From positions 683,711 to 747,710 of the forward strand of contig OZ219748.1 of assembly GCA_964291335.2 (NCBI GenBank): a stretch of 64,000 bases of DNA. Reading direction: 5' to 3'. A program made the translations under genes and the position numbers. The stretch is from Dehalococcoidia bacterium. GTDB lineage: Bacteria > Chloroflexota > Dehalococcoidia > Lucifugimonadales > UBA3495. This document shows positions 4,675 through 56,124 of the stretch, piece after piece; within the stretch, counting starts at the first letter, position 1; the number at the start of each line of letters is the position of its first letter. The notes under the pieces are model-generated. The model searched no databases, was not told the DNA's origin, and saw only the letters and a program-made list of their open reading frames with translations.

Positions 4675-4851
4675 GCCAAAGGAAACCCGATGCCAACACC
4701 CGATGATTGAAGCCCTTGCCCATTGCGGCCCGGCAAAGGGAAACCCGTCTGTCCGAAACCGGGGTGCCGGTTTTCCATTGGCCCAATTTGACAGCCTTCG
4801 CCCCGGTAGGTAGGCTTAAAGACCGAAATCGGTTTCTTTAAGTGTGAAATT

Positions 4852-15700: not shown

Positions 15701-17916
15701 CTCACCCACCCGAAAGGGTGGGTGCTACAGCGCCCTGACAACGGCCGCTGGCTGGGGTGCAGGGTTTCAATCCTCACCCACCCGAAAGGGTGGGTGCTAC
15801 ATTTTGGGCAACCACAAAACGCCCCCGGCTGACCGGTTTCAATCCTCACCCACCCGAAAGGGTGGGTGCTACCCCTGCCGCCGTGGCTTTATCCGGGACG
15901 ACGTGGTAGTTTCAATCCTCACCCACCCGAAAGGGTGGGTGCTACGATGAGCGCCGGCGCGATTTGAGGGGTGGATTGATGGTTTCAATCCTCACCCACC
16001 CGAAAGGGTGGGTGCTACCCGGCTGGCAGCGTTATATCCTCGTTCTCCAGACGGGTTTCAATCCTCACCCACCCTTTCGGGTGGGTGCTACGCCCTGCTG
16101 TACGCTACAGGGTACGCAACCTGTACGGTTTCAATCCTCACCCACCCGAAAGGGTGGGTGCTACATACGCCGCAAGCAGCGCCGGTTAAGCCGTTGCAAG
16201 GTTTCAATCCTCACCCACCCGAAAGGGTGGGTGCTACGCGCAGGTTCGCCCGGCGCTGCCGGTAGTCCTGTAGTTTCAATCCTCACCCACCCGAAAGGGT
16301 GGGTGCTACCGCTCCGGAGGTAGGGGGCGGCGGCGGCAACCAGGGTTTCAATCCTCACCCACCCGAAAGGGTGGGTGCTACGCGGCTATCTGCAAATGGT
16401 CGGACTACCGGGCGGAGTTTCAATCCTCACCCACCCGAAAGGGTGGGTGCTACCGCCCGTAGGCTGCATGATGCTTGGCGGGCGCAGGATGTTTCAATCC
16501 TCACCCACCCGAAAGGGTGGGTGCTACTTGTGCTTTTGCGCCGAGCGGTGATACCAGGGCAGGTTTCAATCCTCACCCACCCGAAAGGGTGGGTGCTACA
16601 ACCTCGGCGACATTTTCGTTGTCGTCCATATCAGGGTTTCAATCCTCACCCACCCGAAAGGGTGGGTGCTACCGTGGCGTGGGCGTGGCCAGTAGCTAAA
16701 ATGACCCAGTTTCAATCCTCACCCACCCGAAAGGGTGGGTGCTACTCTCTGCCCAGAGGTGATAATGTTTGTAGGGAGATGTTTCAATCCTCACCCACCC
16801 GAAAGGGTGGGTGCTACCTCGGTGGCGTGGGCGTGGCGGTACACGCCGGGTTGTTTCAATCCTCACCCACCCGAAAGGGTGGGTGCTACAAGTCGCTTCT
16901 TGAGAGTTACTCTCAATGTAGGCCGGTTTCAATCCTCACCCACCCGAAAGGGTGGGTGCTACCTGCCCGGAAACCGGCGTAGCCGACTGGACAACCCGGG
17001 TTTCAATCCTCACCCACCCTTTCGGGTGGGTGCTACACGGATAACAACATTGTGATTAACAGCGATGATGAGTTTCAATCCTCACCCACCCGAAAGGGTG
17101 GGTGCTACGCCCGGGTTTTGGCTTCCCCGTGCCAGGGCAGGCGTGTTTCAATCCTCACCCACCCGAAAGGGTGGGTGCTACGCCGGTCTGGTAGGCCTCC
17201 TCGGCGGCGTCGTCGAGGTTTCAATCCTCACCCACCCGAAAGGGTGGGTGCTACCGAGCCCGGCTGGACTGTCCAGCACGGCGTACCCGTGTTTCAATCC
17301 TCACCCACCCGAAAGGGTGGGTGCTACCGGCGTTGCAGGCCGCAAAGTGTGCGTCTGCACGGCTGTTTCAATCCTCACCCACCCGAAAGGGTGGGTGCTA
17401 CCTCGGCCTGGGCCCGGCGCCATGCGGATGCGCCGACATGTTTCAATCCTCACCCACCCGAAAGGGTGGGTGCTACGGCACCCCGCTACCCGCTAGCCCC
17501 CCCCGGCCCCGGTTTCAATCCTCACCCACCCGAAAGGGTGGGTGCTACGACCGGCTGCCCCGACTGCGCCGCCGACCCCAGCACTGTTTCAATCCTCACC
17601 CACCCGAAAGGGTGGGTGCTACGCCTGCACGCCGCCGCACGCCCGCCCAGGCCCCCTGGTTTCAATCCTCACCCACCCGAAAGGGTGGGTGCTACTGGAG
17701 ACGGCACTCGACCACCTCTAGGCCCCCCCCCCGGTTTCAATCCTCACCCACCCGAAAGGGTGGGTGCTACGTCCCCAGACGGGCAGAAGAAGACTGTCCG
17801 AGTGATGTTTCAATCCTCACCCACCCGAAAGGGTGGGTGCTACCTCCAGAGAACGTGCCACCCCACGCTATCCCACCGGGTTTCAATCCTCACCCACCCG
17901 AAAGGGTGGGTGCTAC
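9757..17916 (-). repeat. Trailer-side block of 113 repeats: 104 with plus-strand loop GAAA (UUUC in crRNA), 9 with TTTC
   Basis: TTTC-type repeats start at 9757, 9830, 10262, 10336, 10912, 11125, 12278, 16055 and 17000. All other repeats in this block carry GAAA on the plus strand. Confidence 0.9.
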
Positions 17917-17951
17917 TCGAGCGCCTGGTCCACATGCGACTGGGCGGCCTC

Positions 17952-20900
17952 GTTTCAATCCTCACCCACCCTTTCGGGTGGGTGCTACTACCTTCCCGGC
18001 TTCCCGGCCTTTTGCGCGTGGCCGGGTTTCAATCCTCACCCACCCTTTCGGGTGGGTGCTACCTTGAGTAGTATCAGCAGTGGCAAGGCATAAAACGGTT
18101 TCAATCCTCACCCACCCTTTCGGGTGGGTGCTACCTCCAGGGCAGGGAGTGCTAATCCCTGCCCTGTTAGTTTCAATCCTCACCCACCCTTTCGGGTGGG
18201 TGCTACTTGGCTTCAGTCATTGAAGCCGTAACCGCTTCGCTGTTTCAATCCTCACCCACCCTTTCGGGTGGGTGCTACCTTTGGTTGGGTAACCCTACTA
18301 CGAAGCCGGAAACGGTTTCAATCCTCACCCACCCTTTCGGGTGGGTGCTACGCTTTGGCTTCCGCAAATGCGGAAGTTGCTTCCCTGGTTTCAATCCTCA
18401 CCCACCCTTTCGGGTGGGTGCTACCACGCCCACGCCGGGCAGTCGGTACAGGTACACCGTTTCAATCCTCACCCACCCTTTCGGGTGGGTGCTACCTACC
18501 AAACGGACGCTTTATTTTGCATAGCATTATGTGTTTCAATCCTCACCCACCCTTTCGGGTGGGTGCTACCCACCAAAGCGTCTGACGCGGTGGCCAGAGC
18601 AGCTCAAGTTTCAATCCTCACCCACCCTTTCGGGTGGGTGCTACAACTCCGTGCCTCAATGTAACAGCTTTTCCACTGGTGTTTCAATCCTCACCCACCC
18701 TTTCGGGTGGGTGCTACACATAGTCAGGTATTTTATATCCTAGTTGTTTAGTAGTTTCAATCCTCACCCACCCTTTCGGGTGGGTGCTACTGACGCCGCC
18801 CCCGGCATGTTCCGTGACCTGCTAGTTTCAATCCTCACCCACCCTTTCGGGTGGGTGCTACCGGGCAGCCAGGGCAACCCCTGGAGTGGCTGCTGTCGTT
18901 TCAATCCTCACCCACCCTTTCGGGTGGGTGCTACGGCCGCCGTTTCCCCGTCGTAGCAATTAAAGCTGCAGTTTCAATCCTCACCCACCCTTTCGGGTGG
19001 GTGCTACGCTTTGCCATTGCTCCAGCCTACCCCACCGCTGGCGGTTTCAATCCTCACCCACCCTTTCGGGTGGGTGCTACCCTCGGCCGGCATCCGGATG
19101 CCGGCCCAGCCCCCGAGTTTCAATCCTCACCCACCCTTTCGGGTGGGTGCTACCGGCTGACGCCCACCGGTTCCGCTTGCGCAAAATATGGTTTCAATCC
19201 TCACCCACCCTTTCGGGTGGGTGCTACCCGGGTAGTGCGCCGGGTTGCCGCTCTGGGGCCGGATGTTTCAATCCTCACCCACCCTTTCGGGTGGGTGCTA
19301 CGAGCCGCTGCCGGGGCAGCCGCCCCGCGCCGACAGGTTTCAATCCTCACCCACCCTTTCGGGTGGGTGCTACTGTAGGCAATATACAGATTTTGTCAAC
19401 AGGTAAAAGTTTCAATCCTCACCCACCCTTTCGGGTGGGTGCTACCCCAGCCCGACCAGATACACCCCCAGCATTTTCAGGTTTCAATCCTCACCCACCC
19501 TTTCGGGTGGGTGCTACTGGCAATCCGAAGGAAATATACGCAAAACCCAGCAGGTTTCAATCCTCACCCACCCTTTCGGGTGGGTGCTACGGGGCCGTTC
19601 CGGTCGGGAAACCGGGTTTCCGGGCGTTTCAATCCTCACCCACCCTTTCGGGTGGGTGCTACCCCCCAGGACGGCCAAACGGCTTACGGAGAGGCAAGTT
19701 TCAATCCTCACCCACCCTTTCGGGTGGGTGCTACAATCACTCCGCCGGCAATGTTGCCCAAGCTCAAACTGTTTCAATCCTCACCCACCCTTTCGGGTGG
19801 GTGCTACCCGGGTGTCCGGCGGCAAGGGTTCCTGGCAATTCCGGTTTCAATCCTCACCCACCCTTTCGGGTGGGTGCTACGTCAGGCTCTATGGTCTCCT
19901 CGGTCACGTACGGGCTGTTTCAATCCTCACCCACCCTTTCGGGTGGGTGCTACCTCTGCCCGCAGGATGCGATCCAGCCATTCCAGCGGGGTTTCAATCC
20001 TCACCCACCCTTTCGGGTGGGTGCTACGGCCGGCGCCGGCGTCCAGGTCAGCCGATTACGCTGTTTCAATCCTCACCCACCCTTTCGGGTGGGTGCTACA
20101 TTTTTATCCGCAGCGGCCCGTCCTGGTATTCACTAGTTTCAATCCTCACCCACCCTTTCGGGTGGGTGCTACACCGGGGCTTGCGCTGGAGGTGCACGGG
20201 CCAGCACACGTTTCAATCCTCACCCACCCTTTCGGGTGGGTGCTACCGCCGGACGCCTAACCGTAGGAGGATGAGGATTATGGTTTCAATCCTCACCCAC
20301 CCTTTCGGGTGGGTGCTACCTGGGCGCCGCATAGCCATTGTACCACTGCTACCACATGTTTCAATCCTCACCCACCCTTTCGGGTGGGTGCTACCGGCGG
20401 CGGAGTATCGGCGGGCGGCCACCCAAACGAGGGTTTCAATCCTCACCCACCCTTTCGGGTGGGTGCTACCGGCGTGGCGGTAGGTATAACCGGCAGGAGA
20501 ACGTGGTTTCAATCCTCACCCACCCTTTCGGGTGGGTGCTACCATTGCCCCACTAGGCGGCAGCACCCCGGCCCCCGGTTTCAATCCTCACCCACCCTTT
20601 CGGGTGGGTGCTACCGGTTTCGCCCGCGGTTATAATGGCGCAGTAGAAAGGTTTCAATCCTCACCCACCCTTTCGGGTGGGTGCTACCCTTTGACCTTAC
20701 AGCCCATTTTGAGGCTATGCAGGTTTCAATCCTCACCCACCCTTTCGGGTGGGTGCTACGTCCCGTCTGCCCACCCTGACTTTTCAGCATAAGGTTTCAA
20801 TCCTCACCCACCCTTTCGGGTGGGTGCTACCATTTGCGGGGTTAGCCTTGGGTGCAGCGGCAGCAGTTTCAATCCTCACCCACCCTTTCGGGTGGGTGCT

Positions 20901-23580
20901 ACGCCCTGTTCTCTGGATTGCGCTGACGGGCTGCCGGTTTCAATCCTCACCCACCCTTTCGGGTGGGTGCTACCTGCCAGTAGCCGGGTTCGCCGGCGCC
21001 GGCGCAGCGGTTTCAATCCTCACCCACCCTTTCGGGTGGGTGCTACGGCAAGGGCGCCGACAGAAAAACGCTCGACGCCCTGTTTCAATCCTCACCCACC
21101 CTTTCGGGTGGGTGCTACACTACTACGACCCCCTGACGCCGGCCCAGATTGGGGTTTCAATCCTCACCCACCCTTTCGGGTGGGTGCTACCGCCGCTGCC
21201 TCGGTCGGTATATCCCCGGCCAGCCGTTTCAATCCTCACCCACCCTTTCGGGTGGGTGCTACAAGCGCCCTGCGTCAACCGCTGCGGCGCGTGGGTGGGT
21301 TTCAATCCTCACCCACCCTTTCGGGTGGGTGCTACGGCTCTGGCTGGGAGCCAACCACACCCCTAGCCCGGTTTCAATCCTCACCCACCCTTTCGGGTGG
21401 GTGCTACCGGCTACCAGTTCCTGGACGGTCGCCAGTTCTTTGAGGTTTCAATCCTCACCCACCCTTTCGGGTGGGTGCTACCCCACGCCCCGGTGCAGTA
21501 TTTCGCCCTGGACGATGTTTCAATCCTCACCCACCCTTTCGGGTGGGTGCTACCCGTCAGCTGCCGAACCCGGCCAAAGGAACCGGGGGTTTCAATCCTC
21601 ACCCACCCTTTCGGGTGGGTGCTACGTCCATCCCCTCGCCGGCTATCTCACCCACCCAGCTGTTTCAATCCTCACCCACCCTTTCGGGTGGGTGCTACAG
21701 CTACGCTTCCTAGGGTGCGAAGGTACGCAACGCTGTTTCAATCCTCACCCACCCTTTCGGGTGGGTGCTACGGCTGACTATCTAACCGACCTGACGCAAG
21801 TCAGTCTGTTTCAATCCTCACCCACCCTTTCGGGTGGGTGCTACAGCCGGAAGCCGGGAAGGTACGGAAGCGAAGCCGGGTTTCAATCCTCACCCACCCT
21901 TTCGGGTGGGTGCTACCGGCTTCCGGCCTTGCGTACCTTCGCACGCGCAAAGTTTCAATCCTCACCCACCCTTTCGGGTGGGTGCTACCCGTTCCTGGTC
22001 CGTTACGGTTACCGAGTAGTCCCCGTTTCAATCCTCACCCACCCTTTCGGGTGGGTGCTACCTTGGTTGCTGTCGGCATGGCCGTTTACAGCGGAGGGTT
22101 TCAATCCTCACCCACCCTTTCGGGTGGGTGCTACCCAGGATACCCCACTACTCGTTTGTCTTTATTGATGTTTCAATCCTCACCCACCCTTTCGGGTGGG
22201 TGCTACTAGTATCCGGGCCGTAGCCAACCAATACCGGGGGCTGTTTCAATCCTCACCCACCCTTTCGGGTGGGTGCTACTACCGGCATTGTTTCCCCGCG
22301 CTGCCGATGAGGTTGTTTCAATCCTCACCCACCCTTTCGGGTGGGTGCTACGTGGACGCCGAAGACCTGACGGCGCCGGAGATACTGTTTCAATCCTCAC
22401 CCACCCTTTCGGGTGGGTGCTACTTGCTAGGGTTTGATACATTCCTGCGGTGCGTCAGGGTTTCAATCCTCACCCACCCTTTCGGGTGGGTGCTACCAGG
22501 TCATACCAATGCTGCGTTTCAGACTGCCAGGGTTTCAATCCTCACCCACCCTTTCGGGTGGGTGCTACCGCAGGGACCTTTGCCATAGGTGCCGGTCTCA
22601 GCTGTTTCAATCCTCACCCACCCTTTCGGGTGGGTGCTACGCGATATAATCATCCCACCCCTTTTGCTCCCCGCCGGTTTCAATCCTCACCCACCCTTTC
22701 GGGTGGGTGCTACAGGGGAAAATTGCGCCATTCGTTCCAGGCCAGAACGTTTCAATCCTCACCCACCCTTTCGGGTGGGTGCTACTATGCCTTTCAGGAT
22801 ACGGGCGGCGTCCCGGTAGGGGTTTCAATCCTCACCCACCCTTTCGGGTGGGTGCTACCCTCCTTACCTGCGGAATCTGTTCCGGTCATTGGAAGTTTCA
22901 ATCCTCACCCACCCTTTCGGGTGGGTGCTACGGTTGTTTTGACTGCCCAAAATGCGCAAATTTGAGTTTCAATCCTCACCCACCCTTTCGGGTGGGTGCT
23001 ACTCCGGCTTCCGGCCTTGCGTACCTTCGCACGCGCAAAGTTTCAATCCTCACCCACCCTTTCGGGTGGGTGCTACTCGATAATCCCGTCCAATATAATG
23101 CCGACGGCTTCGTTTCAATCCTCACCCACCCTTTCGGGTGGGTGCTACGTGTCCTCAAACTGCAAGGTAGCTCGGTGTCTCCCGTTTCAATCCTCACCCA
23201 CCCTTTCGGGTGGGTGCTACCAGCCCGCTATGGAGATACTGGAGCGGGCCAGAGGTTTCAATCCTCACCCACCCTTTCGGGTGGGTGCTACGGGTGTGGG
23301 GAGCCTGCTTGCGGCAGTTGCGCGTGTTTCAATCCTCACCCACCCTTTCGGGTGGGTGCTACCCCAGGTCCCCCAGCGCAACATCTTCACCCAGCAGGTT
23401 TCAATCCTCACCCACCCTTTCGGGTGGGTGCTACCAAGGTGCAGCAGTATCTGCTGTCGGTGGACGCCGGGTTTCAATCCTCACCCACCCTTTCGGGTGG
23501 GTGCTACCCGCAAAAGTGCGCCAGGCCTTCCGGGGGCTGAAGAGTTTCAATCCTCACCCACCCTTTCGGGTGGGTGCTAC
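17952..23580 (-). repeat. Leader-side block of 78 consecutive repeats, all with plus-strand loop TTTC (GAAA tetraloop in crRNA)
   Basis: Every repeat from 17952 to 23580 reads ...cacccaccctttcgggtgggtg.... The plus-frame repeat peptides change uniformly from PKGWV/TRKGGCY/PERVGAT to PFGWV/TLSGGCY/PFRVGAT. Confidence 0.9.
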
Positions 23581-23732
23581 TGTCATTCGGAGATTTTCTA
23601 TTTGAACATCGCGAACCTCCTCTTTTCCCTCTCTGTGAATGATGAAAATCACGCTTTCGTCGCGTCCACTGAGTACGCTGCAAGTATAAACGCGAACCTC
23701 CTGTTTGCAGCGTCAATCGCAACCGGTTCGCG
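23581..23732 (-). promoter_or_regulatory. CRISPR leader
   Basis: 152-bp non-coding, relatively AT-rich segment between the cas2 stop (23733) and the first intact repeat (23580). It contains the motif cgcgaacctcct twice (23610-23621, 23691-23702) and an inverted partial copy ggttcgcg (23725-23732). Confidence 0.7.
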
Positions 23733-24089
23733 TCACGCGAGCAGCGGACCGCTGAAGTCAATCACGTTGCTTATTCCATATTCCTCGACTCGGTGTTCAC
23801 GTCCGCCGGGAATCTTGTAAAACCGGATGCTGTCTTCATTCTCGTCTATGATGCCAAGTAGCCTGGCCTTCATTTCAAGGAAATTTGTGTCGCTGACCGT
23901 GCATTCAAAAACCGACTTTTGGACCCGCTGACCGTAGTCTTCACAGGTCTTTGCCACCCGCCGCAGACGTGAACGCCCGGCCGCGGTTTCAGTGCTGACA
24001 TCATAAGTAACCAGAATCCACACTATGTTCACCGCTATATATAATATCGAGGTGTGCGTGTGTGAGACCAGAATCCACCCTATGTTCAC
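23733..24089 (-). CDS. cas2: CRISPR-associated endoribonuclease Cas2
   Basis: Cas2 core WILVTYDVSTE...RLRRVAKTCEDYGQRVQKSVFEC...IRFY. Two in-frame GTG starts (24089, overlapping the cas1 stop, and 24032) lie in the two copies of a 25-bp duplication. The shorter form (23733-24032) is probably the functional one. Confidence 0.9.
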   Translation of the reverse strand: MNIGWILVSHTHTSILYIAVNIVWILVTYDVSTETAAGRSRLRRVAKTCEDYGQRVQKSVFECTVSDTNFLEMKARLLGIIDENEDSIRFYKIPGGREHRVEEYGISNVIDFSGPLLA

Positions 24090-24091
24090 CG
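24010..24091. repeat. 25-bp direct duplication of the cas1-stop/cas2-start junction flanking a 32-bp insert (period 57 bp)
   Basis: accagaatccac[a/c]ctatgttcaccg occurs at 24010-24034 and 24067-24091 (24/25 identical). The intervening ctatatataatatcgaggtgtgcgtgtgtgag (24035-24066) has a composition unlike its surroundings. Confidence 0.85.
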
Positions 24092-25120
24092 GGCCACAAA
24101 GGCAGGATAGTGCTCCAGGTCTCCTCGCAAATGGCGTGCCAGTAATCGGGCCTGAAGGTGGGGCAAGAGCCCCACCGGTGTCTTCTGCTGCGCCAACGGA
24201 TGCGTTATCTCCTCTGCCTTTCGCTTCTGATAGGTTACCAGCAGCGTTTTCCTGCCTTCCTCAGTTAGAGAAACTCCACCGCCCAGGCTGCTTGCGAAGT
24301 GCGCTGCGGTCAGCTGTCGCCGGTTAATCAGCGTCAACGCCAGACGGTCAGCCAGGAACGAGCGAAACTCTTCCATCAGATCAAGGGCCAATGATGGACG
24401 ACCAGGTCGGACCGCGTGAAGAAAACCAATTTGAGGGTCCAAACCGACGCCCTCACAGGCGGCCTGGCATTCTGCCCGGACCAGCGCGTAGAGGAAAGAT
24501 AACATGGCGTTAATCGGGTCCCGCGGCGGTCGCCGATTTCTGCCGTCGAAGCTGAAGGCCGAGTCCGGTGAACGTATCAAATGGTTGAAAACTGAGAAGT
24601 AAACCGCGCCGGCACGTCCCTCGTTGCCACGAATTTCGTTCAGGTCACCGGTTTTTTTAAGATCCATAATGGTATCTGCCATGGACTTTGCGGCAAGCCG
24701 TAAATCAGCTTCCGCTTCGGGTTCCCGCGTCTGACGCGCTTCTCGCATCAGGAGTAAGCGCCCGTTCTGCACCTTGGCAGCTACGATGTTTCGGGCAATG
24801 GCGGCAGAGCGCTCGTGGTCCCGATAGGCCTCGTGCTGCGCCAGCCGCAACAGCACATTCCCCGAGGTCGGGCCTACCACTTTTGCTCGAAATCTACCGC
24901 TGCGGCTGAGAAAGACCAGGTCACGCTGGTCTTCAGCGCATTGCGCCATGGCGGCCGGAGATACGCTTACCCTGCCGAAGCAGACCACTGCCCCCAAATG
25001 GTGCACCGGGACCTGCAGGATTGTCCCTCCGTCCGCTTCAACTTTGAGGGTGCGGTGATCAACATGTACGTAGGCCCCTTGCGTGGTAACGTACAGGGTG
25101 TTGAGTAATTCGCGGGCCAC
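24086..25120 (-). CDS. cas1: CRISPR-associated endonuclease Cas1, type I-C
   Basis: 344-aa ORF: N-terminal LLNTLYVTTQGAYV...TLKV beta-domain, then an alpha-helical catalytic domain (GNEGRAGAVYF, RRPPRDPINAMLSFLYALV, GFLH, SLALDLMEEFR). Confidence 0.95.
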   Translation of the reverse strand: MARELLNTLYVTTQGAYVHVDHRTLKVEADGGTILQVPVHHLGAVVCFGRVSVSPAAMAQCAEDQRDLVFLSRSGRFRAKVVGPTSGNVLLRLAQHEAYRDHERSAAIARNIVAAKVQNGRLLLMREARQTREPEAEADLRLAAKSMADTIMDLKKTGDLNEIRGNEGRAGAVYFSVFNHLIRSPDSAFSFDGRNRRPPRDPINAMLSFLYALVRAECQAACEGVGLDPQIGFLHAVRPGRPSLALDLMEEFRSFLADRLALTLINRRQLTAAHFASSLGGGVSLTEEGRKTLLVTYQKRKAEEITHPLAQQKTPVGLLPHLQARLLARHLRGDLEHYPAFVAR

Positions 25121-25151: not shown

Positions 25152-25823
25152 TCAATCCGACTTCGACATGGACTGCCGGACGGGTTTGTTTGTCCCGACG
25201 ACAAACAACTGAGTCTGGTACTGCCGGTTCCTGTCCTGTTTTGACACCACGAACGGCAGGCAGGATTCTACCAGCGAACAGTTGCGGCATCGGGCGTCGG
25301 CCACCGCCGGCGGCAGTACGGGTTCGCTCATCAGCTGCCGGATTGCCGATACTGCCTTTTTCATTTGCTCACGCAATGCGGTTGTGAATTCTACCTCCCG
25401 TCGTTGACGGGAGGAAAAGTGATAGACGGCGCCCACCGGGACTTCCGTGGCGAGCATTTCTTCAAGGCAAACCGCCTGGCCGCAAAGCTGAAGATCGGCG
25501 TGGCGGCCCTGGCGTGCTGGACCATGCTTGTATTCGACGGGGTATGGCGTAACGCCGTGGAATTCTACCAGGTCGGCTTTGCCCAGCAGCCCCAGCGATT
25601 CGGACCACAGCGGCACAGCGTATTCGGTGCGCACGCCGTCGACGGTAGCAACGCCGGATTGATCCACCCGCTCGTGCACTGCGTTGCCGCGGAGGGTGTA
25701 CACGTTCTCATCATAGGTCTGCTCCCGGTGAATCAGGGCGCATTGCCGCGGGCAGTAGCTGTAGTGTTCCAGCATGGACAGCAGCACATAGTCTTCAAAT
25801 TCTGAAATCAGCGGTTCCATCAT
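25152..25823 (-). CDS. cas4: CRISPR-associated exonuclease Cas4 (RecB-like, Fe-S)
   Basis: YSYCPRQCAL N-terminal Cys, DLVEF...PVEYK nuclease core, and C-terminal CRNCSLVESC cysteine cluster. Confidence 0.93.
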   Translation of the reverse strand: MMEPLISEFEDYVLLSMLEHYSYCPRQCALIHREQTYDENVYTLRGNAVHERVDQSGVATVDGVRTEYAVPLWSESLGLLGKADLVEFHGVTPYPVEYKHGPARQGRHADLQLCGQAVCLEEMLATEVPVGAVYHFSSRQRREVEFTTALREQMKKAVSAIRQLMSEPVLPPAVADARCRNCSLVESCLPFVVSKQDRNRQYQTQLFVVGTNKPVRQSMSKSD

Positions 25824-25923
25824 TGCCTCCAGCCTGACCCTGTGCTAACCCTCTCCTACATTATAGGTATCTGTTCCCTCATCATGGTTCCATCATTGCC
25901 TCCAGCCTGACCCTATGCTAACC
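25813..25923. repeat. 38-bp direct duplication of the cas7-stop/cas4-start junction flanking a 35-bp insert (period 73 bp)
   Basis: ggttccatcattgcctccagcctgaccct[g/a]tgctaacc occurs at 25813-25850 and 25886-25923 (37/38 identical). The insert is ctctcctacattataggtatctgttccctcatcat (25851-25885). Copy 25813-25850 carries the real cas4 RBS and ATGATG start. Confidence 0.9.
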
Positions 25924-25925
25924 GG

Positions 25926-26822
25926 TCAGGCGTCGAGCCTGGCAATGCTGACGCCCGTGGGCAAATCGGTTTCGTCCAGCGTCACCGAATAATCCGCGAA
26001 ACGGCGTGGCACGGTCGCATTACCTTTCTGCTTTACTTCCAGCCTTTCGAATAACCGGTGGGCCGGGGCGTTGCCCAACCGGCTTTCGTGGGAGAACACG
26101 TACAAACCCCGGCAGGCCATCATGCCCCTGGCTGATGAGCGGTCTAGGTCCCACATGTTGACCAGAGCTTCCCAGAACAGTTCCAAATCTGCTGCGTTGG
26201 CGCCGGTGTGCCGGGCAAAGTGGGGGTTGAAAAACCCGTAACCCCGGTAAAGGCCGTAGGGCACAGTGGACTTGCGCCCCAGCGTGCCGTGGGTGGGAGC
26301 CTCGTTTTCGTCTTCCTCGTTTTCGGCCCTGCGTTCACCGCGGTTTTCCAACGCAACCCTGGCTATGGTCGAATCCATCGCCAGAATTGGATCGACCGAA
26401 CGGGAGAAGGTCAGTTGCACTGGGCCGCGTACTTGCCCGGCGTTACGCTCCCGCATACTCATCACGGCGCCGAACATTCGAATATCGTAAAACTGCTCGC
26501 ACAACCATGGTTGCGCCTGCCGCGGCGTGGGGTCGTCGTTCTCGTCGCGTCTTTCCGCAAAGACACGGCCCCGGGTTTCGGTGAGGTAGGTGTCGCGCTG
26601 GACGTAAATCTTGTACCGGGATTCATCCCCTCGGGCAGCATCTACATAGTCCCTGACCTTGCGTTTGAGGGACACATCGGTGACAATGCCCTGCATGGTT
26701 TCGGGGTCCATCCGTGGCTGATTGCCGGCGTCCGGGTCTCCGTTGGGGTTGCCATCCTGCACATCAAACAGGATGATGAAATCCTGCCGTCGGTCAACGT
26801 CGTTGTAGGGTTGGGTGGTCAT
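25926..26822 (-). CDS. cas7: Cascade backbone subunit Cas7 (Csd2), type I-C
   Basis: FDVQDGNPNGDPDAGNQPRMDPETMQGIVTDVSLKRKVRDYV is the characteristic Csd2/Cas7c N-terminal signature. 298 aa. Confidence 0.93.
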   Translation of the reverse strand: MTTQPYNDVDRRQDFIILFDVQDGNPNGDPDAGNQPRMDPETMQGIVTDVSLKRKVRDYVDAARGDESRYKIYVQRDTYLTETRGRVFAERRDENDDPTPRQAQPWLCEQFYDIRMFGAVMSMRERNAGQVRGPVQLTFSRSVDPILAMDSTIARVALENRGERRAENEEDENEAPTHGTLGRKSTVPYGLYRGYGFFNPHFARHTGANAADLELFWEALVNMWDLDRSSARGMMACRGLYVFSHESRLGNAPAHRLFERLEVKQKGNATVPRRFADYSVTLDETDLPTGVSIARLDA

Positions 26823-26846: not shown

Positions 26847-28553
26847 TTACGCGTCGGTTTCGTTGTGGGCCTCATTCTGCTGCGCATTGCGTCGGGCTGT
26901 GGCTTCCTGCGCCCTTCGACTGTTGTCGGCGCGTTGATGGTAGTATCCGAGGGCAAAGTGTCCTTGCTGTTCCAGGTTCAGCGTCTTGGGGAACCCGTTC
27001 AGGTTGGACATGATTTCTTCCATCGTATTCTCAATGGCTATACGCGCGCCCCGGTCGTTCCGGTTCAGTGTGTGGAGATGCCCGCGCACCCCTTTGAGCA
27101 GCAGGGGGAACACCGCCCCGGGAGCGGTGGACGCCGTGCCATAATACCGGTCAGCGATGGTTGCATTGACGTGGGGTATCGCTCTATTTTGAGCGCGTTC
27201 CAGCGTATAGAACAGCCGCCCGCAGAGGTAGCCCGGATCCGTGTTCTCTTTGTCGATTTCCACCATGTAGTCCTCCTGATGATTGCATTGCCGGGGCTGG
27301 CTGAGCAGCGCCAGCTTGATTAGAGCGGCGCGGCGTCTGGGAACTTTGCGTTCTGCCTGGCAGCGGCGGATCGCCTGCTGCAATATCTGGGGTGGCACCG
27401 GGTCGCCGTTGAATGCCGCCTTGATGAGGGCCCGGGGCGTCGTGACCGGCAGGTCTTTGCGGTCTCTAACGGTGGCGTTAGCCAGCGCTGATACCCCGTA
27501 GTATCGGTTCTCGTTATCATAGCCGGGGGCGACTCGCTGTCGTTGGAAGTAGAGCGCCAGGTTCTCCTTGACGCTGCCCACGGTGGTGTTGAGCCAGTCG
27601 CGCACCACCGCTCTGCCGCCGGACGCTGACAGCGACAGTGCGTAAAAGTCCGCTTCGTCAAGGTTCGTCCGGCGTCCGAGCCTCGCCGATTCAAGCAAGG
27701 CTTGCACATTCTGCGGTTCCGGGGCGGATAATATTCCCAGGAAGTTGAAACCGGGATCCTCGCGGGTCCAGAAGACGAAGGCGCCGTTGCCGGTTATGAA
27801 CCGGGTGGAGGCGCCGGACAGCAGGTCGTTGAGGCCCCGAGTGAACCCTTCGGCGCATTCCTGGCAGATTGGGGCTACCTGGGACGCTTGCAGACCGTAG
27901 GACTCGAAGGCGTCGCTGTTTGCCGAAATGATGCTGGTGCCTGAGGTTTGCCCGCCAGGGATACCCTTGACTTTGGATTGCAGCCTTTCCAGTACGGGAC
28001 GGTTTTCGCCGCAGACCAGGCACTGCATGGTTGTCCCGTCAGGCTCGTTGATGGTGGCCCAGAACCGTTGCACCGCCGGGTTGTCAATCACGTAACGGCC
28101 GTCAACCTCGAAGGTGATGATCGCCCCACTGTCAAAATCGTCGCCCAGTTCCAGGCTTCGCAGCGGCTCGTTCTTGAGGAAAGATAGAACTGCCTGGACA
28201 TCCGGTTCTCCAGTTGCGGCGGCGCAGCGTTCCACCAGGTCCACGTAGGCGGCGTGGGCTTTCTGCGCTCGTTCAGCCTGCTTGCCGGTTTTCGACCGGC
28301 CCAACGTGTAGTCGGACGGACTGGCCAGCAGCAGCGGTCGAATGCCGGAAGTACGCTGCACCTGGGGCAGCAACCGGCGCTTTCCCCGTCTAGTTCGAGG
28401 CGCCTTCGGGTCGCTCAAATCAATCGGCTGCGGGCTGTGGCATTCTCCATTGGGAGACAGCGCAATGACGTAGCGCAGCGCGCCCTCTGCATAGAGTTTG
28501 GGCGCCGGCGTTTCGTTTCTCTGCGCGTATTCAACCAGTTTGTTCAGCATCAT
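26847..28553 (-). CDS. cas8c: Cascade large subunit Cas8c (Csd1), type I-C
   Basis: 568-aa ORF lying between cas5 and cas7, the position and size of Csd1. It has a CLVCG..CQEC zinc-like cysteine pairs region and a helical C-terminus. Its 4-nt overlap with cas5 suggests translational coupling. Confidence 0.85.
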   Translation of the reverse strand: MMLNKLVEYAQRNETPAPKLYAEGALRYVIALSPNGECHSPQPIDLSDPKAPRTRRGKRRLLPQVQRTSGIRPLLLASPSDYTLGRSKTGKQAERAQKAHAAYVDLVERCAAATGEPDVQAVLSFLKNEPLRSLELGDDFDSGAIITFEVDGRYVIDNPAVQRFWATINEPDGTTMQCLVCGENRPVLERLQSKVKGIPGGQTSGTSIISANSDAFESYGLQASQVAPICQECAEGFTRGLNDLLSGASTRFITGNGAFVFWTREDPGFNFLGILSAPEPQNVQALLESARLGRRTNLDEADFYALSLSASGGRAVVRDWLNTTVGSVKENLALYFQRQRVAPGYDNENRYYGVSALANATVRDRKDLPVTTPRALIKAAFNGDPVPPQILQQAIRRCQAERKVPRRRAALIKLALLSQPRQCNHQEDYMVEIDKENTDPGYLCGRLFYTLERAQNRAIPHVNATIADRYYGTASTAPGAVFPLLLKGVRGHLHTLNRNDRGARIAIENTMEEIMSNLNGFPKTLNLEQQGHFALGYYHQRADNSRRAQEATARRNAQQNEAHNETDA

Positions 28554-29212
28554 TCTGAAGCCTCCCGGTCTGAAAGATAAGGTATTCGCAGTACGCCCTG
28601 CTCCAGGCGCGCGTTGAAAAATCGCGGCGTAGCGGCGCCGTTGTTCCGGGGGGCATAGGTCAAATCCAGCAGCATACTGCCCAGGTCTTCGGTAAGGGGA
28701 ATAGGGGTTTCCGTGCCATCCGGCGCAGAGAACCTGGCCCAGAACTCCCGGCAGCCCAGGTAGGGCGTAGCGAAACAGCGGCCGGCATTCACCCGCCGCC
28801 GGAACTGGTCTCGGTACTTGGCCGGGTCTTCAGCCCCGCTTTTGACTATCACCTGAGCTTTGATGATGTAGGCGACGTCGCGAAGGGCGAGGGTGTGCCT
28901 TTGGGCCCGGTTTCTGCTGTTGGCGGCGTCAAAACCGCCGCCCTCTCGCTGCCACCGGCGCGCCGTCTGGGCAGTCTGACGCGAGTCGATTTCATTGCGG
29001 AGGATGGAGGCGTACCGGATGGGCTTGAGCGCCTGGATTTCCTCCACCTGCCAGGCAAATTCCGGCTTCCAGCAAATCGCTTCCAGTATCCCTTTGGCTG
29101 CCGTCGGCGTCATAACCGGGTAAGAGACCCGCTCAACTTTCATCTCCGGCCTGGTGAAGCAGGCGAAGTCGCCTTCAACTTTCACTGCCAGCGGGGGGTG
29201 TTCATCGGTCAT
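28550..29212 (-). CDS. cas5: Cas5d (Cas5, type I-C; pre-crRNA endoribonuclease)
   Basis: VKVEGDFACFTRPEMKVERVSYPVMTPTAAKGILEAICWKPEF is the typical Cas5d N-terminus. 220 aa. Confidence 0.92.
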   Translation of the reverse strand: MTDEHPPLAVKVEGDFACFTRPEMKVERVSYPVMTPTAAKGILEAICWKPEFAWQVEEIQALKPIRYASILRNEIDSRQTAQTARRWQREGGGFDAANSRNRAQRHTLALRDVAYIIKAQVIVKSGAEDPAKYRDQFRRRVNAGRCFATPYLGCREFWARFSAPDGTETPIPLTEDLGSMLLDLTYAPRNNGAATPRFFNARLEQGVLRIPYLSDREASE

Positions 29213-29218
29213 TTATCC

Positions 29219-29282
29219 CTGCCTCGCCGTTTTATCGACCATTATAAATACAGCTTTTCAATCCTCATCCTGTTGGATGCAC
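29219..29282 (-). ncRNA. Orphan degenerate CRISPR repeat (psi-repeat, 29255-29282) plus adjoining psi-spacer; candidate CreR/CreA-like regulatory mini-CRISPR or Cas5d processing site in the cas5 5' UTR
   Basis: Minus strand reads GTG-CATCC-AACA-GGATG-AGGATTGAAAA; the true repeat reads GTAG-CACCCACCC-GAAA-GGGTGGGTG-AGGATTGAAAC. The psi-repeat keeps a hairpin and 10/11 nt of the post-stem handle, and 12 consecutive nt (29256-29267) are identical to the repeat. No second flanking repeat could be supported. Confidence 0.55.
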
Positions 29283-29288
29283 TAGACA

Positions 29289-29320: not shown

Positions 29321-29355
29321 CTCAGCTTCAGCCCCCGACTGGCTGGCGGGCAGCA

Positions 29356-29375
29356 TTCGTTGTATTTATTATGGT
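29356..29375 (+). promoter_or_regulatory. TTC-flanked partial match to the psi-spacer (candidate Cascade operator), overlapping an AT-rich palindromic region 3' of cas3
   Basis: TTC (29356-29358) is followed by GTTGTATTTATTATGGT (29359-29375). This matches the psi-spacer 5' end GCTGTATTTATAATGGT at 15/17 positions. The adjacent 8-2-8 palindrome is atggtaatgtattaccat (29371-29388). Confidence 0.4.
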
Positions 29376-29396
29376 AATGTATTACCATGGGGGAAG

Positions 29397-31583
29397 TCAA
29401 GCGATGAGGGTATCTGGGTCAATCGTCGTTACGCCTCCGATGCCGGTGATTTCGTTGTAGGCGCCGCGCCATTCGTACAGGCCAGGCATAATTTCATCGA
29501 GCAGACCGGCGCGTTCCTTTTCGAGCGCTTCCCTCCGGTAAAGCGATACTGCCCATGGCTGCATCTGTCGCAGCAGGTGGCGGGTGTTCTTGCTGCCTCT
29601 GCGCAGCGCAGCTATCGCGTCGAGTATCTTCGGCCATTCTTCAAGTTTATCAGCGGCCCGGAACGCCGTTTCGCCGGTTACTACTGCGGACACCGTATCA
29701 TCGTCAATCATCTTGAACTGCCGGGCAACTTCGGGGTAGTCGAAGGCTTTGCGTTTTTCCTGCACCTGGCAAGCGTCTGTTGCGACATCCTGGTACAGGC
29801 GGCGGAAATATTCCGCTGCTACGTCGGGGTCGTCAAGGTCATCGTGGCCGGCGTTGAGCATGGCTATGGTTCTCTCTGTTGCTGTCCGGTAGTTGCCAGG
29901 GGGGAACGTTCCCGTCTCGGGTTGGAACACTATAACTCGCCCTTCGTCCAGCGATCCGTTGCGGTTGCAGCGCCCGGCGGCCTGGATGATGCTGTCCATT
30001 GGCCCGATGGCGCGCAATACCATGGGGAAGTCGAGGTCAACGCCCGCCTCAACCACCTGGGTCGAAACTACGCGGCACGGTTCCCCGTTGCCCAGACGTT
30101 GGCGTATCTCAGCGATGACCGCCTCGCGGTGTCGTCCGCACAGCAGGGTTGAGAGATGCAGCGCGGTTTCTTCGTTCAAGGCGGCCAGCAGCGCCAGAGC
30201 GTCCTTTTTGGTGTTCACTACCGCCAGGGCTTGCGGCATCTCGCGCATGCTGGCGGCCACTTCGTCCCATGACGGTCGCGGGTCGGTGCGCCACTCGTAA
30301 CGAACCCTTTTCAAGAGATGAAAGTGCTTCTCCGGCGATGGCACGATGTCATGGGCATTCACATCGGCAAAGGGTTTGATTGCCTGAAACGACGGCTGGG
30401 TGGCGGTGGACAGCACTACACTGGAGCCGTAGTTTTCCGCCAGGTCTCGTAGTCCGTCCAGAATTGGCTCCAGAAGCCTTGGGGGCAACGCCTGGGCTTC
30501 GTCCAGGATGATGACGCTGCGGGTCAGATTATGCAGTTTGCGTGTGGAACTGGTGCGGTTTGAGAAGAGGCTGTTGAAAAGCTGAACGGTGGTGGTAACC
30601 ACCACTGAAGCATCCCAGTTTTCGCTGGCCAGTTTGGCCTGAATCGCTTTCGGGGAGTATTCATCCGGGTCGTCAGTCTCTGCTGACGAGTGATGCTCCA
30701 GCACGGCTGAATCCCCGAGGAATTCCCGGTACACGCTGGCCGTCTGTTGGGTGATGGAGATAAAGGGTACGGCGACAATCACCCGGTCCAGGCCGTGACT
30801 TGCCGCGTGGCGCAGGGCAAAACCCATGCCGGATAAGGTCTTGCCGCCGCCGGTAGGGACGGCCAGGCGGAAAATGCCTGGCGGCCTTTCGGCTGCGGTC
30901 AGGCAGGCGTCGTACACTGCCGAGCGGACTTCGTTGACTGAACTGGTCGCCGCGCCGGTTTGGACCGTTTCCCGATGCCGCTTGCTGAATCTCTGCCACA
31001 GGTCCGCCACCGGTATGCTCGGCCTGCGCTGTGCTGCCTGCTGCGGGTTGAAGTGCGCTTCGGTATCCAGATAGTCGGCGTCCACCAGCGCCGAGAACAC
31101 CATCCTTAGCCACATCTCGGCGCGGTAGGGCGTTGTGCTAACCCATTGCGGTAGCTTTACCGGGGTTTGCGGCTCCAGTTGGGGCATGGCTTGGCGTGCG
31201 CAGGCGATTGCGTTTTCCGTTGCCGGGTTGCTGTCTTTCTCATCGAGCCAACTTTTACAGTGCCTCATCTCCCGCAGGCCGCCGTGATGTCCTTGCACCA
31301 ACAGGGCCAGAGGTTCCAGGTATTGCCAGGCCAGTTTGGCGCCGGCGCCTTTGTGGTCCGGCCCCTGTTGGCGCTCCCCGACAAGATACCGCTGGAACTC
31401 TGGGTTGAACTTGCCCAGGTCATGCCACAAGCCGGCGTAGTACCCGGCGTCGTGGCTGTCAAAGGGTTTGCAGAACTCTCCGGCAATTTTCGCCACCGCA
31501 GTCAGGTGGTCAACCAATCCGTGGCAGATGTTGTCCTCGTTGGCCGAGTGCGCGTAAAATTCGATCATTGTTTCACCCTTCAT
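29397..31583 (-). CDS. cas3: Cas3 helicase-nuclease (HD domain plus DEAD/DEAH helicase)
   Basis: N-terminal HD domain (YAHS..., GLWHDLGKFNPEFQ). Helicase motifs AVPTGGGKTLSG (Walker A), VIILDEAQAL (DEAx) and VVSTQVVEAGVDLDF. An alternative start is MIEFY at 31568. Confidence 0.95.
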   Translation of the reverse strand: MKGETMIEFYAHSANEDNICHGLVDHLTAVAKIAGEFCKPFDSHDAGYYAGLWHDLGKFNPEFQRYLVGERQQGPDHKGAGAKLAWQYLEPLALLVQGHHGGLREMRHCKSWLDEKDSNPATENAIACARQAMPQLEPQTPVKLPQWVSTTPYRAEMWLRMVFSALVDADYLDTEAHFNPQQAAQRRPSIPVADLWQRFSKRHRETVQTGAATSSVNEVRSAVYDACLTAAERPPGIFRLAVPTGGGKTLSGMGFALRHAASHGLDRVIVAVPFISITQQTASVYREFLGDSAVLEHHSSAETDDPDEYSPKAIQAKLASENWDASVVVTTTVQLFNSLFSNRTSSTRKLHNLTRSVIILDEAQALPPRLLEPILDGLRDLAENYGSSVVLSTATQPSFQAIKPFADVNAHDIVPSPEKHFHLLKRVRYEWRTDPRPSWDEVAASMREMPQALAVVNTKKDALALLAALNEETALHLSTLLCGRHREAVIAEIRQRLGNGEPCRVVSTQVVEAGVDLDFPMVLRAIGPMDSIIQAAGRCNRNGSLDEGRVIVFQPETGTFPPGNYRTATERTIAMLNAGHDDLDDPDVAAEYFRRLYQDVATDACQVQEKRKAFDYPEVARQFKMIDDDTVSAVVTGETAFRAADKLEEWPKILDAIAALRRGSKNTRHLLRQMQPWAVSLYRREALEKERAGLLDEIMPGLYEWRGAYNEITGIGGVTTIDPDTLIA

Positions 31584-33809: not shown

Positions 33810-34619
33810 TTACTCCGCTTCCAGTTCTCTTTCGTCCAGTTGATACCACTCAATCTGTCCATCGTTTACCATGGTCTGAACCTGGTAATCGTTGGTCACA
33901 CTGCCAATCATGGGGGCAGCGGGACAGCCGGTAAGTCGGGTCAGGAAACCGGCGTTGCGGATGGCCCGGCTGGTATCCCGCTCGTCGGCGGTAAAGGAGG
34001 CTTCCGCTGCGATGTAACAGGTCTTTCCCTGTTGATCGATGCACTCCATTACCATGTCAGCGGCGTAAAAGCTGCGCCGCTCGCCGAAGGGGAGTTCAGC
34101 GGCCAAATCCGTCTGGCGCATCATTCGCGCCAAATCCTGGTGCGAGAGTATCCGGACAAAGTCCAGCCCCCGGTCGTCCACGATGTCTTCAAAGTGATCC
34201 CGCAGCAGGCGCCGGGCAACGTTCCCTTTCAGCATTCCCACGTCGGTTTGCAATCGTTTCAAGGTGGCTGCCACGTCCCGGTTTATCACCACCTGCTCTT
34301 CCATGAAGGCGGTAGTTTTCTCCATGAAGGCATTGGTTTTCTCCATGAAGGCGGTGGTTTTCTCCATGAAAGCGGTAGTCTGCTCCATGAAGGCATTGGT
34401 TTTCTCCATGAAAGCGGTAGTCTGCTCCATGAAGGCATTGGTTTTCTCCATGAAAGCGGTGGTTTCTTCGATAAAATTATTAACGTAAGCAACGAAATGG
34501 GCGAATTTTTCGGGCAGCTCAATCAGCTCGTCGCTGAGGATTTCCCGACGCACTTCGGCCCGGAACTCGGGGTCTTCCCGCAGGGTGTGAAGAAACATGG
34601 AGCGGAATTCGGAAGTCAT
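33810..34619 (-). CDS. Hypothetical protein with eight tandem heptads (AFMEKT[T/N]) and a globular C-terminal domain
   Basis: The ATG at 34619 is preceded by AAGGAAAG. The central region reads ETTAFMEKTNAFMEQTTAFMEKTNAFMEQTTAFMEKTTAFMEKTNAFMEKTTAFMEE. The C-terminal ~150 aa resembles a nuclease-like fold (CYIAAEASFTADERD), but this is unproven. Confidence 0.6.
   Translation of the reverse strand: MTSEFRSMFLHTLREDPEFRAEVRREILSDELIELPEKFAHFVAYVNNFIEETTAFMEKTNAFMEQTTAFMEKTNAFMEQTTAFMEKTTAFMEKTNAFMEKTTAFMEEQVVINRDVAATLKRLQTDVGMLKGNVARRLLRDHFEDIVDDRGLDFVRILSHQDLARMMRQTDLAAELPFGERRSFYAADMVMECIDQQGKTCYIAAEASFTADERDTSRAIRNAGFLTRLTGCPAAPMIGSVTNDYQVQTMVNDGQIEWYQLDERELEAE
34301..34468. repeat. Tandem repeat, 8 x 21 bp, in-frame inside the 33810-34619 CDS
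   Basis: Units ccatgaa[g/a]gc[ggt|att][a/g]gt[tt|ct][t/g]ct start at 34301, 34322, 34343, 34364, 34385, 34406, 34427 and 34448. Positions 34364-34405 and 34406-34447 are an exact 42-bp duplication. Confidence 0.9.
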
Positions 34620-55498: not shown

Positions 55499-56063
55499 GT
55501 ATTTCCAACGTGCGTTGGTGTAGGTGTATATATAGAGCCATCAGGGAAATCAGACCGCCGGGAGGCAGCAACCGGGCCAACCTGGAGCATACAGTCCCGG
55601 TATGCAATCCCCCCGCTGCGGCGCCAACCGGCTCACCCAATACGGCCATTCCCGCGGCAAGCAGACTTATCGCTGCGGCCAGCGCCAATACCACTTCGTC
55701 CCGGGAACCGGGCGTCCCCACCAGCCGAGGCAGCTCAAGGCCCAGGCCGTAGCGCGGTACGCCGAAGGCAGCAGCATGGCCGCCAGCAGCCGGCTCCTGG
55801 GCAGCAAGGAAGGAACCCTGGCCAGCCAGCGGGCGGTCAAAGCGGCGGCCGTGCCGGCTCCTGGGCAGCAAGGAAGCAAGGAAGGAACCGTCTATTCACG
55901 GGTTAAAAAAGCCCGTCAGGCCCGGGAGTTGCTGAAGCTGCTACGGAAGCGGCGGCAGGAGCGGCGGCCCGGTCAACCCCGGCCCGCGGATGCTGGGGGG
56001 TTCCATTGCGTTCGTCTGCCGGCGGTTGGGCTTGATTTAATGCCAATACCCGTTGGGAATACC
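55499..56063 (+). mobile_element. Second, internally deleted IS1-family remnant (same family and orientation as 28-866)
   Basis: Left end ggtatttccaacgtgcgttgg (55499-55519, 18/21 identical to copy 1). Right end ccaatacccgttgggaatacc (56043-56063). It carries InsA-like MQSPRCGANRL...KQTYRCGQRQYHF...KEGTVYSRVKK with an internal duplication; the InsB part is missing. Confidence 0.75.
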
Positions 56064-56078
56064 CATGTCAAGGTAGCC

Positions 56079-56124
56079 TTGACAGCCCAGGTTGGCTTTG
56101 CTATCTTAATAAGAACATAAGTTT
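56079..56124 (+). promoter_or_regulatory. lexA promoter with Cheo-type SOS box
   Basis: TTGACA (56079-56084), 17-nt spacer, TATCTT (56102-56107), then GAACATAAGTTT (56113-56124). The box matches GAAC-N4-GTTC with one mismatch and lies 13 nt before the lexA ATG. Confidence 0.55.

Follow-up and report, generated by a model that had tools for sequence, protein, structure and literature searches.

A candidate off-target spacer integration, matched by empty sites in relatives, within the type I-C cas operon of a Dehalococcoidia bacterium

Introduction

During CRISPR adaptation, Cas1-Cas2 attaches both 3' ends of a prespacer to the first repeat, one on each strand and at either end of it, and repair of the gaps then duplicates that repeat. 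The distance between the joins is set by a ruler anchored by motifs within the repeat, and altered spacing of these motifs leads to duplications of aberrant size (PMC4872114; PMC6698737). Off-target integration by Cas1-Cas2 has been reported in E. coli in vivo (Nivala et al., 2018, as cited by PMC7054753, PMC6698737 and 10.1101/148544), and the 'neo-CRISPR' units produced by such non-canonical integration are cited by 10.1101/148544, PMC6698737, PMC7054753 and PMC9456107. The process is already known experimentally, and the scars described here, as we interpret them, are new natural examples of it.

These scars, which we call A, B and C, lie in a 64-kb window (64,000 nucleotides, the whole stretch of DNA analysed) from a Dehalococcoidia bacterium. 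Like the E. coli events of Nivala, Shipman and Church (2018; Nat Microbiol 3:310), as described in the papers that cite them, they combine a spacer-sized insert with a duplication of roughly one repeat length of ordinary genomic sequence, in the presence of active Cas1-Cas2 and at a site only partly like the native target. The E. coli system is of type I-E, with overproduced Cas1-Cas2 and supplied oligonucleotides, whereas the present one is of type I-C and includes Cas4. Natural cases have been described as circumstantial only, whereas the scars here are natural, fixed, dated by empty sites and, in scars A and B, placed in the bacterium's own cas operon. Our scars also vary among themselves in duplication length, unlike the neo-CRISPR units.

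Ectopic acquisition at CRISPR1 and CRISPR3 of Streptococcus thermophilus (PMC5338259, PMC7999890) likewise takes place away from the leader-proximal repeat, but it hits genuine internal repeats of an array, whereas the target of scar A is non-CRISPR sequence. CreR, CreTA and related crRNA-like RNAs (PMC10120712, 10.1101/2023.03.10.532045) share with scar A a repeat-spacer-repeat layout inside a cas operon. Those elements, however, are derived from CRISPR repeats, have kept hairpin and handle, and carry spacers that partly match promoters; scar A has none of these properties.

Results

The window carries a complete type I-C operon with all genes on the minus strand: cas3 (29397-31583), cas5c (28550-29212), cas8c (26847-28553), cas7 (Csd2; 25926-26822, 298 aa), cas4 (25152-25823, 222-223 aa), a type I-C cas1 encoding the presumed integrase subunit (24086-25120) and cas2 (23733-24089, an ORF of 118 aa). 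The last three of these genes are intact, and the assignments around the cas7-cas4 junction made in an earlier, sequence-only reading of this DNA hold. Beyond the leader (23581-23732) lies the CRISPR array (9757-23580, minus strand), with 190 copies of a 37-nt repeat, GTAGCACCCACCC[GAAA/TTTC]GGGTGGGTGAGGATTGAAAC, and spacers that range over 33-38 nt and have modes of 35 nt (74 spacers) and 36 nt (63 spacers). The operon also contains a true standalone repeat-like element upstream of cas5, at 29255-29287.

A direct-repeat search of the window found the 38-nt plus-strand segment GGTTCCATCATTGCCTCCAGCCTGACCCTGTGCTAACC at 25813-25850 and again, with one mismatch (G versus A on the plus strand), at 25886-25923, the starts being 73 nt apart; 100 dinucleotide-preserving shuffles yielded no equivalent pair. 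The earlier description of a 38-bp duplication bracketing a 35-bp insert between cas7 and cas4 is thereby confirmed. The bases immediately beyond the two copies differ, which fixes the repeat at exactly 38 nt and the insert at exactly 35 nt. The resulting 73-bp period is, as had been remarked, typical of the array, with its 37-nt repeat and 33-38-nt spacers.

Read on the cas strand, scar A runs from the cas7 stop codon through CC, GGTTAGCATAGGGTCAGGCTGGAGGCAATGATGGAACC, ATGATGAGGGAACAGATACCTATAATGTAGGAGAG and GGTTAGCACAGGGTCAGGCTGGAGGCAATGATGGAACC into cas4, which continues as GCTGATTTCAG. The cas7-proximal copy (GGTTAGCATAGGGTCAGGCTGGAGGCAATGATGGAACC, 25886-25923, minus strand) begins 2 nt past the cas7 stop; it includes a GGAGG ribosome-binding site and ATGATG, and now opens only a four-codon upstream ORF (uORF). 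After it comes the unique insert (ATGATGAGGGAACAGATACCTATAATGTAGGAGAG, 25851-25885, minus strand, 35 nt), with a perfect TATAAT inside, and then the cas4-proximal copy (25813-25850, minus strand), from which cas4 takes its working ribosome-binding site and start; P0001 begins at the second ATG there. The proposal that the duplication regenerated an intact ribosome-binding site and start for cas4 stands up on a reading of the sequence, and the full turnover of the array after the event, described below, agrees with it.

Related operons were sought by a Cas7 scan of species-representative genomes, which led to Dehalococcoidia genomes; by cluster look-ups, the clade at 90% protein identity or more comprises only four genomes, and exact look-ups of the window's Cas4 and Cas7 and of P0001 retrieved no record. 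Two relatives, L001 (OZ220464.1) and L013 (ERZ24894574, contig ctg6603l), are 92-95% identical to the window in DNA across the cas operon (about 93%), and in both the 38-nt segment is single, as GGTTGACATAGAGCCAGGCTGGAAGCAATGATGGAACC, directly abutting cas4 GCTGATTTCAGAATTTGAAGAC (GCTGATTTCAG). The outgroup L004 has the homologous segment once, and L003, L018 and L019 have single, shorter cas7-cas4 junctions. When the window was compared with L001 by BLAST, the two flanks of scar A overlapped by exactly 38 nt (L001 4900-4937), and a multiple alignment of the junction showed one clean 73-nt gap. The insert is missing from L001, L013 and L004; the single-copy empty site whose existence had been proposed as a check is thus found in all three, with flanks that align to both boundaries. 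Since the outgroups carry single junctions, the insertion is the derived state. Apart from scars A and B, no indel of 7 nt or more separates the window from L001 over the 7.1 kb of the cas operon.

Scar A recurs in a further contig, L014 (ctg6022l, from the sample that also gave L013), whose cas operon is 98.35% identical to that of the window; its two copies show the same T/C difference, and a single base of its insert is changed (ACGATG...). As L014 has the same scar, scar A predates the split of the two strains and is no assembly error. These alignments date the event: the L001/L013 lineage had already split off, and the window strain and L014 had yet to diverge. The uORF, predicted earlier as MMEP-stop, does span four codons in the window, but it reads MMEPR-stop in L014 because the insert there begins ACGATG. 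All that the arrays of the window and L014 have in common is the spacer nearest the trailer and a degenerate terminal repeat, so adaptation went on after scar A arose. The adaptation machinery is present and active in this lineage and kept working after the event. While the true arrays turned over completely, the scar A unit stayed single and has not grown into an array.

Scanning about 50 kb of non-array DNA for direct repeats around a short unique sequence returned three scars, against none in 20 shuffles: scar A (25813-25923) and the two that we call B and C. Scar B (24010-24091) lies at the cas1 stop and cas2 start, where the 25-nt duplication CGGTGAACATAG[G/T]GTGGATTCTGGT stands on both sides of an insert. 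On the minus strand its upstream copy (CGGTGAACATAGGGTGGATTCTGGT, 24067-24091, 25 nt) includes the cas1 stop codon and a GTG, and the downstream copy (CGGTGAACATAGTGTGGATTCTGGT, 24010-24034) includes the ancestral cas2 start. The insert between them (CTCACACACGCACACCTCGATATTATATATAG, 24035-24066, minus strand, 41% GC) is 32 nt long, or 33 given the ambiguity of its boundary, with slippage-prone CA and TA runs. The window and L014 both carry scar B; L001 and L013 lack it. Through scar B the cas2 ORF, formerly 99 codons long, gained 19 in-frame codons to reach 118; with the ancestral GTG start at 24032-24030 the product would be 99 aa, as in L013.

Scar C (55789-55889, plus strand) lies in an IS-type transposase-like ORF (55602-56120). 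Its first copy (GCCGGCTCCTGGGCAGCAAGGAAGGAACC, 55789-55817) is 29 nt, its unique insert (CTGGCCAGCCAGCGGGCGGTCAAAGCGGCGGCCGT, 55818-55852) 35 nt, and its second copy (55853-55889) 37 nt, with an 8-nt unit, AGCAAGGA, doubled. It interrupts the helix-turn-helix of the ORF, where homologues read an uninterrupted LGVKxGTVYSW, so that its empty site is seen at the protein level only; those of scars A and B are seen at the DNA level. Set against the 37-nt repeat, the duplications measure 38 nt in scar A (37 if a boundary base matches by chance), 29 or 37 nt in scar C, depending on slippage, and 25 nt in scar B; set against spacers of 33-38 nt, the inserts measure 35, 35 and 32 or 33 nt, respectively.

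The duplicated segment of scar A is not a CRISPR repeat, being ordinary cas7-cas4 junction sequence in the relatives. The CRISPR-DR9 profile gave no score on either copy even at E values up to 1 and detected all true repeats in the stretch searched. The copies fold like their shuffles (z about 0), in contrast to the true repeat (-19.8 kcal/mol, z -5.9). Ungapped, the target matches the repeat at 16 of 37 positions, and overall it ranks in the top 2-6% of 38-mers; when the ends only are scored, it rises to the top 0.03-0.17%, and 27-169 other 38-mers, out of 99,848 scored on the two strands of about 50 kb outside the array, match the repeat ends equally well. The resemblance of the proposed pseudo-repeat to the true repeat is modest, and it is the ends alone that stand out. 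The TAGCAC said to be common to the duplicated segment and the 5' end of the repeat occurs in the cas4-proximal copy only; the cas7-proximal copy reads TAGCAT. In the lineage of the window, GTTGACA had changed to GTTAGCA before the event, which raised the likeness to the repeat start GTAGCAC.

At the other end, the repeat terminus GGATTGAAAC is matched at 7 of 10 positions by the 3' ends of the duplications of scar A (TGATGGAACC) and scar C (GGAAGGAACC) and at 5 of 10 by that of scar B (GGATTCTGGT, as GGATT). Matches of at least 7/10 occur at 0.31% of background positions (0.0031), and two of them among six end-orientations would have a probability of about 1e-4 under that background, in a comparison defined post hoc: it was chosen after the sites had been seen, though motif and boundaries were fixed by the data. 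We also considered whether the 38-nt segment might be a decayed standalone CRISPR repeat, comparable to those between cas7 and cas4 in L002, L004 and L017, and rejected this: the standalone repeat of L017 and L004 sits upstream of a cas7 3' remnant, apart from the homologous junction. The solitary repeats of L002 and L004 were likewise rejected as integration products, having no flanking duplication.

The scar A insert has 40% GC in a genome of 60% GC, a value as low being found in 2.8% of genomic 35-mers and 5% of array spacers. In a shuffle-tested comparison it showed no relation to either flank, which disposes of its being a diverged copy of flanking sequence. The likeness between its start and the end of the duplicated segment, raised earlier as a caveat, is not significant, 158 of 500 shuffles scoring equally. 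Its longest match elsewhere in the 64-kb window is 9 nt, the chance level. A weak likeness to the cas4 codons for REQTYDE (GGGAGCAGACCTATGATG) was equalled by 8 of 500 shuffles, requires a 2-nt indel and was one of several comparisons; we dismiss a foreign cas4 fragment as chance.

The three inserts show no mutual similarity, each is unique in the window, none has a template within the 64 kb, and none matches an array spacer of the loci compared; direct reading finds no terminal inverted repeats in them. Against phage and plasmid collections insert A gave chance-level matches only, and two of its 18-mers had no match in IMG/VR; inserts B and C returned nothing from phages or IMG/VR. A 20-mer of insert A has two metagenome matches (L015 and L016), in one low-GC gene, with a 22-nt core and unrelated flanks. 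As a protospacer this match is probably due to chance, given the low-GC organism and the flanks. The phage, plasmid, IMG/VR and metagenome collections offered no credible source for any of the three inserts, an absence that carries little weight.

Discussion

We suggest, with a probability of roughly three in four, that scar A is best explained by off-target Cas1-Cas2 integration, and the analysis supports the earlier interpretation of it as an ectopic acquisition. What we observe directly is the anatomy of the scar, its empty sites, its timing with respect to the divergence of the strains and the end motif of its duplication; from these we infer the enzyme responsible and the order of the steps. 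A prespacer of 35-36 nt would have been joined to both strands of the cas7-cas4 junction at points 37-38 bp apart, on the cas strand between ...CTGACC and GGTTAGCA... and on the opposite strand between ...CAGC and GGTTCCAT..., and gap filling would have copied the stretch between the joins to give the duplication. A base beside a boundary may be identical by coincidence, so the actual division into duplication and insert could be 38+35, 37+36 or 36+37, each within the values of the array. The site was probably chosen because its 3' end, TGATGGAACC, resembles the repeat terminus, and the insertion would have been survived with the cas7 stop undamaged and a full ribosome-binding site and start ahead of cas4.

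Off-target integration fits scar A in the lengths of duplication and insert, the empty site, the unique insert, the active machinery and the terminus-like motif. Scars B and C fit in part, on insert length and motif; their duplication lengths do not fit, or not clearly. Scar B lies outside the array values in both its duplication (25 nt) and its 32-nt insert, and since its duplication is 25 nt, the rule of one repeat length is sometimes broken in this lineage. The simplest account of scars B and C is that they, too, came from the process that made scar A, with the joins closer together; their varied duplication lengths may reflect a ruler relaxed on targets that have no internal repeat motifs. 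That the scars lie where two genes meet, or within an IS gene that is dispensable, is probably due to duplication there leaving both neighbours whole.

Several other origins were weighed against off-target integration. A repair or replication accident independent of CRISPR, whether end joining at a staggered break with filler DNA or template switching, would be at ease with duplications that vary among scars (25, 29 or 37, 38), with a scar B outside both repeat length and spacer range, and with the failure of the phage, plasmid, IMG/VR and metagenome collections to link any insert to adaptation by a protospacer or PAM. Against it, all three inserts (32-35 nt) fall in or beside the 33-38-nt spacer range, two of the duplications end with 7 of 10 positions matching the repeat terminus (background frequency 0.0031), the 64 kb hold no templates for the inserts, and junctions of the microhomology type are not evident. 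To our knowledge, moreover, no process besides Cas1-Cas2 integration sets nicks about 37 bp apart, and we consider such an accident unlikely. We give a good deal less credence to a tandem duplication of 73 bp, with later divergence or partial gene conversion, or to a small mobile element that inserted and decayed, both of which strike us as highly improbable. The regular period and the REQTYDE likeness would suit the duplication, yet the empty-site alignment shows no 73-bp unit in the ancestor, and, as the sequence-only reading had argued against a simple tandem event, copies identical at 37 of 38 positions enclose an insert unlike either flank. As for a mobile element, the inserts have neither terminal inverted repeats nor second copies nor mutual similarity. 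Typical insertion sequences make duplications shorter than the 25-38 bp seen here, and casposons are kilobase-scale and duplicate about 14-15 bp. Casposon integration by casposases, homologues of Cas1 (PMC5137440, PMC6977970), would have in common with our scars a Cas1-family chemistry with target-site duplication, but casposons are large self-synthesizing elements, unlike inserts of 32-35 nt between duplications of 25-38 bp. The chance of an assembly or sequencing artefact, which metagenome-assembled sequences might invite, is negligible: the same structure, with one insert base changed, was assembled independently from a strain that differs by 1.65%.

A selected regulatory insertion is a very unlikely account of scar A. 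The insert would then be a promoter, a uORF or a crRNA-like guide, as in a mini-array of the CreR/CreTA type, controlling cas4-cas1-cas2. In keeping with this, insert A holds its perfect TATAAT 47 nt upstream of cas4, a hexamer found only 7 times in 100 kb of sequence, both strands counted; inserts A and B are TA-rich, at about 40% GC, and lie beside the downstream gene; scar A has been retained through 1.65% divergence; and standalone repeat-like elements are frequent in cas loci, occurring in 34% of I-C loci (PMC10120712). A two-hexamer scan of the cas strand nevertheless gave no promoter and so did not support one in insert A, despite the TATAAT. The duplicated segments stem from ordinary junction sequence and not from CRISPR repeats, with neither hairpin nor CRISPR-DR9 score, and insert A has no partial match longer than 9 nt in the window that would point to complementarity with a promoter or gene of the locus. 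Regulation would in any case address the retention of scar A and not its origin, and is compatible with Cas1-Cas2 integration as the cause. A fold across the scar A unit gave a z-score of 0.06 for structured RNA; the unit is probably inert today, and processing of it by Cas5c is unlikely.

If off-target integration by Cas1-Cas2 did produce scar A, integration at the single-copy cas7-cas4 junction would be expected to depend on GATGGAACC. There appear to be very few examples of a natural, fixed off-target integration with a matching empty site, and scar A adds a dated one from a type I-C system that contains Cas4; its interest comes from the empty-site control, from its place within the system's own operon and from the two scars that accompany it and have a bearing on the ruler. 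That three scars of unequal duplication length share one end motif suggests hypotheses on what fixes the second cut, which may be the terminal repeat motif, possibly read by Cas4, and on how strict the repeat-length ruler is where no genuine repeat is present. The signature of a unique, spacer-length insert within a 25-38 bp duplication, if applied genome-wide, could give the rate at which adaptation damages its host.

For this lineage, the scars indicate that off-target integration can be survived, the adaptation genes themselves having been struck with their function kept. A broader proposal is that off-target spacer integration is a recurrent mutational force in these Dehalococcoidia, which would have remodelled the genome repeatedly, its own cas operon included, by a relaxed ruler acting on GGAxxGAAxC-like motifs, putting promoter-like stretches rich in TA before cas4 and cas2 and lengthening the cas2 ORF by 19 codons. 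We hold this proposal to be doubtful at present; if it were true, such scars could be raw material for new arrays or for regulatory repeat-spacer units.

Further duplication-plus-insert scars

A second scar, scar B, lies at the cas1-cas2 junction (window 24010-24091, - strand; 25-nt duplication plus a 32-nt TA-rich insert), and the cas2 ORF of the window is lengthened through it by 19 in-frame codons. Scar B is also carried, at about 5728-5810, by L014, a strain 98.35% identical to the window over the cas operon, and is absent from L001 and L013, the two loci with about 93% DNA identity. A third, scar C (window 55789-55889, + strand), falls inside ORF 55602-56120, an IS-type transposase-like gene, at its helix-turn-helix. 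Its two copies, of 29 nt and 37 nt, one of which holds the 8-nt unit AGCAAGGA twice, enclose a GC-rich insert of 35 nt, and the 24 extra residues of the ORF are missing from homologues. Further degenerate copies of this IS-type gene are present in the same genome (proteins P0137, P0138 and P0142).

A 22-nt core, GGAACAGATACCTATAATGTAG, is identical between insert A, the insert of the scar at the cas7-cas4 junction, and a gene of a low-GC organism represented by two metagenome matches (L015 73-92 and L016 6147-6166). Beyond this core, neither L015 nor L016 showed similarity to insert A, and we judged the match to be due to chance; less probably, it reflects a mosaic or mutated protospacer.

Repeats in related loci and in the array

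Between cas7 and cas4, solitary full-length CRISPR repeats occur in the related cas loci L002 (4961-4997) and L017 (about 5836-5874) and in the outgroup L004 (4984-5020). Those of L002 and L004 are of a family (GTTGCGCCCGG...) that differs from that of each locus's own array. Those of L004 and L017 lie beside a 3' remnant of a second cas7. Together, the solitary repeats and cas7 remnants suggest module swapping at this junction. Another relative, L009, has a degenerate locus (4475-6730) in which about 1.5 kb interrupts cas7; after the interrupted gene, no alignment was found for cas4, cas1 or upstream cas2 sequence, and a repeat-like element (…GCTGAGGATTGAAAA) immediately precedes sequence matching window 23725-23818, the cas2 3' end and leader start.

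The hairpin of the repeats has a 4-nt loop that switches between GAAA and TTTC along the array of the window (9757-23580). Read on the cas strand from the trailer end, two GAAA repeats come first, then a long stretch of TTTC in which GAAA appears sporadically, and last about 78 leader-proximal GAAA repeats. The same flips occur in L002. This pattern is consistent with the loop having inverted across the palindromic stem, the first repeat then being copied at each acquisition. An apparent 105-nt 'spacer' at 10949-11053 consists of two spacers around one repeat short by 2 nt (GTTTCAATCCACCCACCCGAAAGGGTGGGTGCTAC).

Elsewhere in the window, a 21-nt unit, TCCATGAAGGCGGTGGTTTTC, is repeated in tandem at 34300-34465 (7.9 copies; a 42-nt period was also called), within overlapping ORFs on both strands.

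Elements upstream of cas5c

The cas3-cas5 intergenic region (window 29340-29400, - strand) contains a perfect palindrome, GGTAATACATTACC, that adjoins TTGACT, and then a strong GC hairpin, GGCTGGCCGCCAGGCCGCGGCCTGGCGGCCAGC; these are possibly an operator and a terminator or processing structure. Just downstream, a standalone repeat-like element (window 29255-29287, - strand), comprising a short hairpin and then GAGGATTGAAAN, lies immediately in front of the crRNA-processing nuclease gene, about 45 nt before cas5c starts. Searched against Rfam with E up to 1, it received no score. The element is conserved across related loci (L014 about 527-566; L001 and L002 about 1535-1573; L003 about 1543-1581; L013 about 605-643; L018 about 2635-2673; L019 about 2623-2661), with a stem that varies on both sides between them (CATCC/GGATG, CACCC/GGGTG, GCGGC/GCCGC, GCGCG/CGCGC). 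The element may serve as a cleavage site for Cas5c or as a regulator of the CreR type.
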